Source of the DNA: Candidatus Campbellbacteria bacterium
GTDB lineage: Bacteria; Patescibacteriota; Minisyncoccia; Phycocordibacterales; EsbW-18
Assembly: GCA_024653945.1 (NCBI GenBank)
Contig: JANLIT010000003.1
Coordinates: 162,936 to 226,935 of the forward strand
DNA length: 64,000 nucleotides
Reading direction: 5' to 3'
Part shown: positions 71 through 1,107 of the stretch, in pieces
How positions within the stretch are numbered: the stretch's first letter is position 1
Layout of the letters: each line of letters opens with the position of its first letter
Notes under the pieces: generated by a model
Told to the model about the DNA's origin: nothing
Database searches by the model: none
The model's input: the letters and a program-made list of their open reading frames with translations, nothing else
Position numbers and translations under genes: made by a program

Positions 71-79
71 TTTTTACTG

Positions 80-152
80 AGCCGCCTCCCAGATTTGAAC
101 TGGGGACCTACGGTTTACGATACCGTTGCTCTACCAGCTGAGCTAAGGCGGC
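80..152 (-). tRNA. tRNA-Thr (anticodon CGU)
   Basis: Reverse complement folds as cloverleaf: acceptor GCCGCCT/AGGCGGC, D-arm GCTC..GAGC, anticodon stem ACGGT/ACCGT with loop AT-CGT-AA, T-arm CCCAG TTCAAAT CTGGG; no encoded CCA. Confidence 0.85.
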
Positions 153-210
153 AAGATGCTTCTTCCAACTACCAACCTCTCACTCCCAACTTCTAACTTC
201 CACTACTTTG

Positions 211-484
211 AGCCGATGGCCGGGATTGAACCGGCGACCCCGTCCTTCGTATACACCCTCATTTAAAAACACACACGTATTGAGGGACTAGACTGTATCT
301 TGTACGTGCATAATAGCGACGCATCCCTTGTCAGTCGTTCGAGCCTCCACCTCATGTGGATGCTACGGTCTTGGCCTTGTGTGTAGGTTATTAACCGTTA
401 TTCGGGATACAAAACGCGCATTTCTACGCGAACGGGCAGAATTTCTCCACCATGGACGTGCTCTACCATCTGAGCTACATCGGC
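211..484 (-). tRNA. tRNA-Thr (anticodon GGU inferred) interrupted by a group I intron in the anticodon loop; exons 484..449 and 247..211
   Basis: 5' half (484..449) GCCGATG TA GCTC AGATGGTA GAGC A CGTCC AT-GGT and 3' half (247..211) AA GGACG GGGTC GCCGG TTCAATC CCGGC CATCGGC T pair perfectly (acceptor 7/7, anticodon stem 5/5, T-arm 5/5); halves separated by 201 nt. Confidence 0.75.
248..448 (-). ncRNA. group I intron (201 nt) inserted between tRNA positions 36/37
   Basis: 5' exon ends in U, intron ends in G (..GUAUACG) before exon AA; internal elements resembling group I P7 (GACUG / CAGUC, cf. conserved R-like UCGAACGACUGACA and S-like AAGAUACAGUCUAGUCC) and a P9 hairpin CCCUCA..UGAGGG just before omega-G. 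Confidence 0.65.
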
Positions 485-501: not shown

Positions 502-1107
502 TTACCTTATTTTCTTCATTTTTTCAATCTCACCGACCAGAATATCTCTGAGTTTTTTGTTGTTAAAATAAATGGTCAAAACCCCGTATTGTGTTTTCTT
601 CCGATACGTTCCCACACCAAGTGTCGGAGTAATAATAATTTTCTGAAATTGTTTTTCTTCTATGTTGAGATGTTTTTTCCAAAACTCTTTTGCATCCACG
701 GCTGACATGTCGCGAAAAACTTGAAGTCCGAAATGTAATTTTTTCTCATCTATTTCGTAGCACTTTTTTAGAAATAACAGAAACATTTTAATAAGATGTG
801 GGTCAGTATTACCAAGACGTACAGAATGTGTATTGCTTTTTGTGCCCTCGCCCCAATACAAACCAATTCCTAATCCAAATAAGAACCAATCTTTGTGTGA
901 CACAAGATTCTTACACATAAACGGATTTCCGTTTGGATTATATTTTATGTAGAGCGCGTCTGACCTATTACGACGCGGTAGTTTGTATGTATCCATCCAG
1001 TAACAAATCGTATGTGTTGAAACACCAATAATTTTTGAAATCTCTTGAAGAGACCTCTTGTCTTGAAAATAGAGGCGTTGTATATCTTTTTTTGCAAGAA
1101 AAACCAT
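502..1107 (-). CDS. LAGLIDADG-type homing endonuclease-like protein with N-terminal HTH
   Basis: 201 aa; motif FGLGIGLYWGEGTK matches the LAGLIDADG pattern (G-L-x-x-G-E-G-T); N-terminal HTH-like segment SLQEISKIIGVSTHTICYW; lies immediately upstream of the intron-containing tRNA. Confidence 0.45.
   Translation of the reverse strand: MVFLAKKDIQRLYFQDKRSLQEISKIIGVSTHTICYWMDTYKLPRRNRSDALYIKYNPNGNPFMCKNLVSHKDWFLFGLGIGLYWGEGTKSNTHSVRLGNTDPHLIKMFLLFLKKCYEIDEKKLHFGLQVFRDMSAVDAKEFWKKHLNIEEKQFQKIIITPTLGVGTYRKKTQYGVLTIYFNNKKLRDILVGEIEKMKKIR

Follow-up and report, generated by a model that had tools for sequence, protein, structure and literature searches.

Close to the beginning of a 64,000-nt stretch of DNA from a Candidatus Campbellbacteria genome (contig JANLIT010000003.1; the whole stretch is referred to below as the window), the two halves of a tRNA gene lie on the minus strand with 201 nt between them. 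The locus raises the question of what separates the halves, which tRNA they encode, and whether the gene can still give rise to a mature product. We conclude that the segment 484..211 (minus strand) is very probably a functional tRNA-Thr(GGU) gene interrupted between U36 and A37 by a 201-nt group I intron devoid of an open reading frame (ORF), and that this intron belongs to a large, divergent family occupying a single site, mainly in ultra-small bacteria of the candidate phyla radiation (CPR).

When joined, the segments 484..449 (36 nt) and 247..211 (37 nt), which are separated by 448..248, form a complete cloverleaf. A scripted count found standard pairs at 7/7 positions of the acceptor stem, 4/4 of the D stem, 5/5 of the anticodon stem, and 5/5 of the T stem, and ARAGORN in intron mode recovered the split gene with a 201-nt intron, so the fully paired halves described in the original prediction, which had been made from the sequence alone, were borne out. 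ARAGORN in default mode and the Rfam tRNA model did not report the split tRNA-Thr(GGU) gene in the window. CCA is not encoded by the gene, the discriminator U73 being followed by CAAAG (window 200..247, minus strand), and the 3' end must therefore be added posttranscriptionally.

The exons alone do not fix the junction. Exon 1 ends in ...CCAUGGU and exon 2 starts with AAGGACG..., and sliding the junction along these sequences gives an ACG, GCG, GGG, or GGU anticodon; ARAGORN in intron mode placed it at 33/34 and labeled the gene tRNA-Arg(ACG), i(34,201). We placed the junction at U36|A37 on the strength of the rule that a group I intron is preceded by U and ends in G (the U-1/omegaG rule) and of natural intron-less alleles. 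Only the 36/37 solution puts a U (U449) before the 5' splice site and a G (G248) at the intron end, as had been predicted, and the spliced product was called tRNA-Thr(GGU). The ARAGORN labels of 116 homologous split genes were Thr for 59, Arg for 36, His for 14, Pro for 4, Leu for 2, and Phe for 1, while the single rule ...UGGU|intron...G|AA fitted essentially all 116; the 112 genes that could be parsed all became tRNA-Thr(GGU) when spliced in this way, and the small remainder consisted of mis-split or truncated copies in which the junction was unchanged. The tRNA-Arg(ACG) label and the Arg, His, Pro, and Leu labels within the family were thus rejected as artifacts of junction sliding. Twenty natural intron-less tRNA-Thr(GGU) alleles found at the syntenic position have the anticodon loop AUGGUAA (18 alleles) or UUGGUAA (2 alleles), and the loops of the 112 genes spliced in silico are the same two, AUGGUAA in 74 and UUGGUAA in 38. 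These sequences identify the gene as a tRNA-Thr(GGU) gene with its intron between U36 and A37.

To find relatives of the intron, one genome per species was scanned for the core pattern ACGACTNACAAGG..AAGATANAGTC, which has 22 specified bases and for which about 2 chance matches are expected by our own calculation. The scan returned at least 120 homologous loci, all of them tRNA-Thr(GGU) genes split at the same point and nearly all located in metagenome-assembled genomes (MAGs) of Patescibacteria/CPR, the hosts including Saccharibacteria, Paceibacterota, and Yanofsky-, Kaiser-, Wolfe-, and Peregrinibacteria. Complete CPR genomes, such as CP011209.1, CP174359.1, and OY970216.1, are among those with the intron. 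The 111 distinct introns ranged between 158 and 266 nt and were approximately 68 to 80% identical to the window intron over the aligned parts; at 201 nt, the latter is typical of its family and not, as first supposed, among the smallest. A covariance model trained on the Thr introns only, with the window copy in the training set (model R1), gave a single match in the window, at 156 bits, and a single strong match at each locus, at 143 to 194 bits. Homologous split tRNA-Thr(GGU) genes in at least 120 independent genomes, together with the score of the window copy, are therefore far beyond chance.

The frequency of the intron was determined in 80 metagenomic loci picked, independently of the intron, by the protein encoded just upstream of the tRNA gene (502..1107 in the window). 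In 54 of them, including one that runs into the contig end, the gene directly downstream was a split tRNA-Thr; 1 had a decayed copy, 20 had an intron-less tRNA-Thr(GGU), 1 had a tRNA-Thr(CGU), and 4 were too short, the site being occupied in about 73% of the informative loci. Threonine tRNA is consequently not the uncommon host that it was taken for, at least in this lineage, where the interrupted gene occurs in at least 120 species-level genomes and where the host and site correspond to an already catalogued class (Thr.5Ug). The intron is optional at its site, and its presence was scattered on a weakly resolved tree built from the linked ORF, requiring 13 parsimony changes versus 17.5 ± 1.4 after shuffling; this pattern implies that it has been lost and/or gained repeatedly.

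Individual copies of the family (loci are designated by L numbers) departed from the common pattern. The shortest full-scoring copy, of 158 nt (L034, 5917-6090, plus strand), has P9 essentially deleted and the core intact and scored 143.6 bits with R1; if active, it would be unusually small for a natural group I intron. At L165 (2137-2299, plus strand), a 147-nt insert at the tRNA-Thr site retains P1, P2, J8/7-P7', P9, and omegaG and scored 37 bits with R1. Having lost P3 to P6 and the 5' strand of P7, it is presumably a dead intron within a tRNA pseudogene. Typical members were also found on contigs labeled Bacteroidota (L049, 5226-5422, in the isolate genome of Niastella populi, NZ_LWBP01000002.1, 184.5 bits, and L007 in a Pedobacter MAG) and in MAGs labeled Gammaproteobacteria (L034, L039, L041, L052, L062, and L064), reflecting either lateral spread beyond CPR or mislabeled or contaminated records.

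The group I architecture was assessed on an alignment of 100 sequences (A1), in which a structure of 11 helices, including the P3 pseudoknot, P6, and P9.0, was counted. Pairs were formed in 95.5% of the 4941 cells, compared to 77.9 ± 0.4% after shuffling (0 of 500 shuffles reached the observed value) and 33 to 46% with the partners slid. Compensatory double changes occurred at 33 of the 50 pairs, and the covariation score was 0.496, versus 0.159 for shuffled and approximately 0.1 for slid partners. Mutual information, computed without an energy model, recovered P1, P2, P5, P6, P8, P9, P9.0, and the anticodon stem across the intron, while RNAalifold recovered P1, P2, P4, P5, P7, P8, and P9, with double changes at 29 of 43 pairs. 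That the anticodon stem covaries across the intron indicates selection on the spliced product.

The splice sites and the individual helices followed suit. Of 99 distinct sequences, 98 had U.G as the P1 splice-site pair; the two G-C pairs that involve the exon were invariant (98 to 99 of 99), and the P1 extension covaried; the terminal G (omegaG) was invariant in 100 of 100 sequences. Covariation was seen at all 8 family pairs of P2, all 6 of P9, and, strongly, all 4 of P8, as well as in P5 and P6. P3 was 100% paired, one of its pairs showing CG:95/UA:4 and the remaining ones G.U changes, and P9.0 was 98% paired (GC:62/AU:30 and CG:53/UA:39, columns 245-246 with 298-299). An 11-nt receptor-like motif in P8, CUAA(G/A)...UA(U/C)G, was present in 15 of the 39 copies with a GAAA L2 loop and in 0 of the 61 others (Fisher p of about 1e-7); the window copy has the GAAA L2 and a partial P8 receptor only (UAUGC). 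Such an L2-P8 tetraloop-receptor contact is used by the Azoarcus and Anabaena tRNA introns.

Alignments of the family contained two further features of this fold. In most members, the P1 loop sequence CGY (columns 13-15 of A1) can pair with RCG, the three bases that end the intron, omegaG included (columns 298-300); this L1/3'-end pairing was 84% paired and covaried (GC:54/AU:16 and CG:40/UA:21), is absent from the window copy, and is mutually exclusive with P9.0, so that it may be a switch sequestering the 3' splice site. At the base of P5, columns 110 and 148 of a family alignment (A389 and C373 in the window) alternate between G.U (58 sequences) and A.C (42 sequences), an isosteric wobble exchange suggesting that a wobble pair beside J4/5 is structurally required.

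The window copy departs from none of the 55 invariant alignment columns and has every helix (Table 1). The P7 strands GACUG/CAGUC, the S-like stretch CAAGAUA-CAGUC, the P9 hairpin, and the terminal G named in the original prediction are all in place; U449 and G437 form the wobble pair of the 5' splice site, L1 consists of AAA (444..442), and P3 can be extended to 5 bp in this copy (AUCCC, 408..404). The arrangement of A338-U290, a bulged C337, and then G336-C291 matches the layout of a guanosine-binding site, which is where we would place it from the sequence. As self-splicing is the established mechanism of group I introns, we infer that the window intron would likewise catalyze its own excision, with this base pair binding guanosine and independently of protein cofactors. 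In the predicted reaction, G34 G35 U36 of the pre-tRNA would pair with the guide 5'-GCC (437..435) to form P1 with the U36.G437 wobble, and the P4-P6 and P3-P8/P7 domains would assemble around the P3/P7 pseudoknot, with the GNRA loop L2 docking on P8. Free guanosine bound in P7 would attack after U36; G248, placed by the 2-bp P9.0 (288..287 with 250..249), would then enter the same pocket, and the 3'-OH of U36 would attack after G248, ligating the exons into the loop AUGGUAA and releasing the intron.

Several observations weigh against this assignment. The shuffle control leaves phylogenetic relatedness in, P3 has just 3 bp in the family consensus, and P4 and P7 are invariant and give no covariation signal, the invariance of P7 being partly imposed by the search pattern; likewise, the core elements (AAGAUA-CAGUC of J8/7-P7', A-rich J4/5 and J5/4, and A338-U290/C337/G336-C291) fit in sequence but are invariant across the family. 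The window copy has blemishes, namely, U.U mismatches at the P2 base, A.C mismatches flanking P5, and one A.G in P6; its short L1 (AAA) lacks the element present in many family copies, and its R1 score of 156 bits compares with approximately 160 to 193 for most copies. Decay does occur in the family, as the lost core of L165 demonstrates. Finally, the general Rfam model of group I introns, RF00028, gave no match on the window at the gathering threshold or at an E value of ≤10 over 900 nt or over 286 nt, and matched 0 of 18 family loci at the gathering score.

The silence of RF00028, which according to the original prediction would count as a refutation, lost that meaning in a positive control. 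R1 gave weaker matches (28 to 35 bits, E values of 1e-7 to 1e-9) at several loci, and these turned out to be introns of adjacent tRNA-Tyr(GUA) genes. At L069, where the Tyr and Thr introns lie 90 nt apart, RF00028 scored the Tyr intron at 47.0 bits (E value of 8e-11), just under the gathering threshold of 50 bits, and the Thr intron at 14.9 bits, far below it. We therefore rejected RF00028 nondetection as evidence against the group I assignment: the threshold is a detection criterion of one model and not a mechanistic feature, and the architecture is supported by covariation anyway. According to a 2020 preprint by Williams (bioRxiv 10.1101/2020.01.27.920355), none of the RF00028 seeds is bacterial. 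Since R1 detects the Tyr introns and RF00028 recognizes a Tyr intron, the Thr family is linked to bona fide group I introns, and it is a divergent relative of the recognizable Tyr introns. This link, the covariation, and the intron-less alleles together upheld the prediction that the anticodon loop of tRNA-Thr(GGU) is interrupted by a group I intron. As 47.0 bits falls short of the gathering score, standard annotation misses the Tyr introns too. A second weak R1 match (25.6 bits), upstream of the linked ORF at the metagenomic locus L143 (573-775, plus strand), is probably another related intron, possibly in tRNA-Tyr.

Among the alternatives, we weighed first that the window copy descends from a group I intron and is dead or decaying, in which case it would not splice in the host genome and the tRNA gene would be a pseudogene. 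The low-end score, the mismatches in P2, P5, and P6, and the precedent of core-deleted copies set by L165 speak in its favor. Against it, the 55 of 55 invariant columns and all helices are intact, the exons form a perfect cloverleaf, and an ARAGORN default scan found no second tRNA-Thr(GGU) in the 64-kb window; the intact tRNA-Thr(CGU) that had been noted next door is present at 79..152. The low score is explained by the P2, P5, and P6 mismatches and the short L1. We regard decay as improbable, and because of the mismatches and the score we rate the window copy as functional with high, not complete, confidence.

Table 1. Features of the split tRNA-Thr(GGU) gene and its intron in the window, neighboring genes, and related elements at other loci (L numbers)
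Feature	Coordinates	Strand	Details
tRNA-Thr(GGU) exon 1	449..484	-	Positions 1-36: acceptor 5' strand, D arm, anticodon-stem 5' strand, A32 U33 G34 G35 U36 (U36 pairs with G437 in P1)
tRNA-Thr(GGU) exon 2	211..247	-	A37 A38, anticodon-stem 3' strand, variable loop, T arm, acceptor 3' strand, U73
Group I intron, 201 nt, no ORF	248..448	-	R1 model, 156 bits over 240..456
P1 hairpin	435..451	-	G34 G35 U36 and intron nt 1-4 (451..445) with internal guide UUCUGCC (441..435); 7/7 pairs
P2 hairpin CGCGUA/UGCGCG	415..430	-	430..425 / 420..415; GAAA tetraloop 424..421
P3 5' strand CCC	404..406	-	Pairs with 327..325; pseudoknot with P7
P4-P5 domain	365..398	-	P4 ACGGUU/GACCGU, 398..393 / 370..365; P5 CCU/AGG, 387..385 / 377..375; A-rich J4/5 and J5/4
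P6 hairpin	342..364	-	364..356 / 350..342; 8/9 pairs in window copy
J6/7 and P7 5' strand	332..341	-	CGAAC, 341..337; GACUG, 336..332; invariant in the family, partly through the search pattern
J7/3 and P3 3' strand	325..331	-	ACAA, 331..328; GGG, 327..325
P8 hairpin UGCGU/ACGUA	303..323	-	323..319 / 307..303
J8/7 and P7 3' strand	291..302	-	CAAGAUA, 302..296; CAGUC, 295..291; matches AAGAUAUAGUC consensus of RF00028
P9.0 5' strand GU (J7/9)	287..288	-	G288-C249, U287-A250, the two bases preceding the terminal G
P9 hairpin CCCUCA/UGAGGG	256..286	-	286..281 / 261..256
Intron 3' end	248..250	-	A250 C249 (P9.0 3' strand), omegaG 248
Intact tRNA-Thr(CGU)	79..152	-	ARAGORN default and Rfam tRNA model
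201-aa ORF, N-terminal helix-turn-helix and alpha/beta domain	502..1107	-	Ends 17 nt before the tRNA
Split tRNA-Tyr(GUA) gene, L069	7216-7416	-	Junction 35/36; introns of the four Tyr genes, 185-198 nt
Split tRNA-Tyr(GUA) gene, L017	7665-7867	-	Junction 35/36
Split tRNA-Tyr(GUA) gene, L029	4707-4947	+	Junction 35/36
Split tRNA-Tyr(GUA) gene, L008	2899-3112	+	Junction 35/36
Intron relative in phage gene, L207	5926-6119	+	IMGVR_UViG_3300015613_000310; R1, 90 bits; GGU|...ACG| junctions

The ORF upstream of the tRNA gene is part of a large family, with at least 1130 clusters of hypothetical proteins. Most of these are CPR labeled, as are the best homologs of the window protein (59% identity), and the invariant residues are GxGxGLYWGEG, R97, N100, D102, Q129, and K156. 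Three window proteins had no exact counterpart on record, and synteny and the best homologs would place the host in the Patescibacteria. Of 120 intron loci, 44 had the ORF in this position, as did 4 of 4 independent contigs, and it was absent from 54 of the 103 intron loci with enough upstream sequence. Paralogs lie 5' of split tRNA-Tyr genes at L069 (7443-7988) and L029 (4084-4695). No Pfam family beyond a weak helix-turn-helix (HTH) match and no significant nuclease match in Pfam, NCBIfam, or PHROGs was obtained. Two AlphaFold models, one full length and one of the domain only, were confident (pLDDT of 88 to 89); Foldseek searches of the PDB with them gave best E values of 0.019 and 0.024 and no LAGLIDADG enzymes, a sequence-profile search of the PDB found nothing, and the weak top matches in a viral fold library were phage endonucleases (E values of 3e-3 to 1e-2). 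In the loci selected by this protein, the ORF adjoins tRNA-Thr(GGU) with or without the intron; it is a syntenic neighbor of the tRNA gene regardless of the intron.

This bears on the possibility that the intron is a group I ribozyme needing a protein cofactor in vivo, perhaps the product of this very ORF. A minimal intron with a 3-bp P3 might call for such help, and an HTH protein encoded on the same strand so close upstream, with the recurrence described above, would be a possible candidate. The same ORF, however, precedes 20 intron-less tRNA-Thr(GGU) genes and is missing from about half of the intron loci, and no RNA-binding or maturase-like fold was found for it in the PDB or viral-library Foldseek searches or the PDB profile search. 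We accord protein assistance little probability and retain the self-splicing intron as the preferred interpretation.

It also bears on collaborative homing, in which a free-standing homing endonuclease works with an ORF-less intron (PMC3984707); here, the upstream ORF would cut intron-less tRNA-Thr(GGU) genes and the intron would protect its own genome. The ORF is patchy in occurrence yet fixed in position, its GLYWGEG motif is reminiscent of LAGLIDADG, its N terminus matches DNA-binding modules of PHROGs annotated as phage HNH endonuclease (E value of 2.5e-7), and the viral-library matches and the paralogs upstream of split tRNA-Tyr genes point the same way. Nevertheless, in 20 of 75 informative loci selected by the protein it sits beside the very intron-less target that such an enzyme should cut, and it had no significant nuclease match even though the PDB is rich in LAGLIDADG proteins and the models are confident. 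Because the ORF is found beside tRNA-Thr(GGU) with or without the intron, the endonuclease idea, whether as a LAGLIDADG or another free-standing homing enzyme, was rejected, and collaborative homing at this locus is highly improbable.

That the gene is instead a tRNA-Arg(ACG) with an insert at 33/34, or carries an endonuclease-type (bulge-helix-bulge) intron, has next to no probability: the ARAGORN intron-mode call is its sole basis, while a 33/34 junction makes the intron end in U and not in G, the tRNA body shares G1-C72, C2-G71, and U73 with the neighboring tRNA-Thr(CGU), the syntenic intron-less alleles are all GGU, the ARAGORN labels shift with the bases flanking the junction where a single GGU solution suits all copies, the junction lies at 36/37 and not at the canonical 37/38, the junctions fall in P1 and the P9.0 tail with no bulge-helix-bulge, and the host genome is bacterial.

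A clear relative in a phage gene bears on how the family moves. On one viral contig (L207), it lies toward the 3' terminus of an ORF of 1373 aa that immediately precedes a distal-tail-protein (Sipho_tail/Dit) gene, and the host gene is probably a tape-measure gene. When the 194 nt between the predicted splice sites are excised, two ORFs join in frame into an uninterrupted one of 1516 aa (the frame alone would be kept by chance in 1 of 3 cases), which counts in favor of the group I assignment. As the guide reads just three exon bases, insertion by reverse splicing at GGU sites would be plausible. Taken further, one may speculate, although we consider it rather unlikely, that an undescribed minimal group I lineage, with a 3-bp P3 and GGU/GCC recognition and invisible to RF00028, has spread without a homing endonuclease across the tRNA-Thr(GGU) genes of Patescibacteria, some Bacteroidota, and a phage tail gene, most simply via reverse splicing at GGU; the L1/omegaG pairing might act as a step switch in many copies, and the use of guanosine could make an essential tRNA depend on the nucleotide pool for its maturation in nucleotide-auxotrophic hosts.

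The practical consequence concerns annotation. Given that default tRNA finders and Rfam miss the gene, many CPR genomes will appear to lack tRNA-Thr(GGU); tRNAscan-SE is not designed for such introns (PMC8450103). Such apparent losses distort completeness checks and decoding inferences, and a family covariance model with its alignment would fix this. The family also offers more than 100 natural variants of a ribozyme of approximately 160 to 260 nt, with clean covariation and both allele types at one site, and is thus well suited to work on how minimal group I introns fold and how introns move without an endonuclease. Nothing known is overturned, and a specialist would not be surprised.

Lui et al. 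(2021) remarked in passing that some tRNAs of circularized CPR genomes contain group I introns (PMC8172020). Beyond that remark and the Williams preprint, the literature yielded no description of a CPR tRNA-Thr family of the window type, and the Williams counts may include it. According to the preprint, metagenomic assemblies of unnamed phyla average 0.49 split tRNA genes per genome, and bacterial tRNA introns fall into 21 host/site classes, one of them Thr.5Ug. The window intron has the features defining this class (a Thr host, insertion after loop position 5, U at -1, and G at omega) and is a member of it; the family is abundant, underdescribed in CPR, and missed by standard tools. With the seed of that class, Rba53.Thr.5Ug, it shares the tRNA-Thr GGU host, the site after U36, the fifth base of the anticodon loop, U at -1, G at omega, and the GGU/GCC P1. 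The seed has a classical IC3 core, GUAGAGACCA..GAC..GGGCGG..AAGGGAUGGUCC, and its P6 belongs to the GCC AAG type, whereas the window family has CGAAC-GACUG-ACAA-GGG, AAGAUA-CAGUC, a 3-bp P3, and a simple P6. In a by-eye comparison with the Williams seeds, the IC3 signature (..GUAGAGACUA-GAC-GG.., AAGGGAUAGUCC, and the GCC AAG P6) was not found in the family, which differs at J6/7, J7/3, J8/7, and P6.

The closest core found was that of the CPR tRNA-Tyr introns, which correspond to the seed Mba143.Tyr.4Ug (Tyr.4Ug of Williams). Both types have J3/4 GAUA, P4 ACGGU/ACCGU, P7 GACU(A/G), and J8/7 AAGAUA; they are similar in size, lack an ORF, and occur in the same genomes, often in adjacent genes. 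The Tyr introns differ in their site (35/36), 6-bp P3, two-tiered P6, and J6/7 GUAGA, compared to the 3-bp P3, simple P6, J6/7 CGAAC, G-C rather than A-U closing pair of P7, and J7/3 ACAA of the Thr family. The helix order, the S-like AAGAUA(U/C)AGUC, and the P7 GACU(A/G) of the model consensus are shared with RF00028.

Bacterial tRNA group I introns classically reside in tRNA-Leu(UAA), tRNA-fMet, tRNA-Arg, and tRNA-Ile, and all of these belong to subgroup IC3. In common with those of Azoarcus tRNA-Ile (205 nt), Anabaena and other cyanobacterial tRNA-Leu(UAA), tRNA-fMet, and Agrobacterium tRNA-Arg, the Thr family resides in the anticodon loop, measures about 200 nt, and is devoid of an ORF, and it shares with them the P1-P9 helix set with P9.0, the lack of P5abc, and a GNRA L2 with a P8 receptor of the 11-nt type. 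It is set apart from them by its core signature, its host tRNA, its shorter P3, and a distribution centered on Patescibacteria and not on cyanobacteria or proteobacteria.

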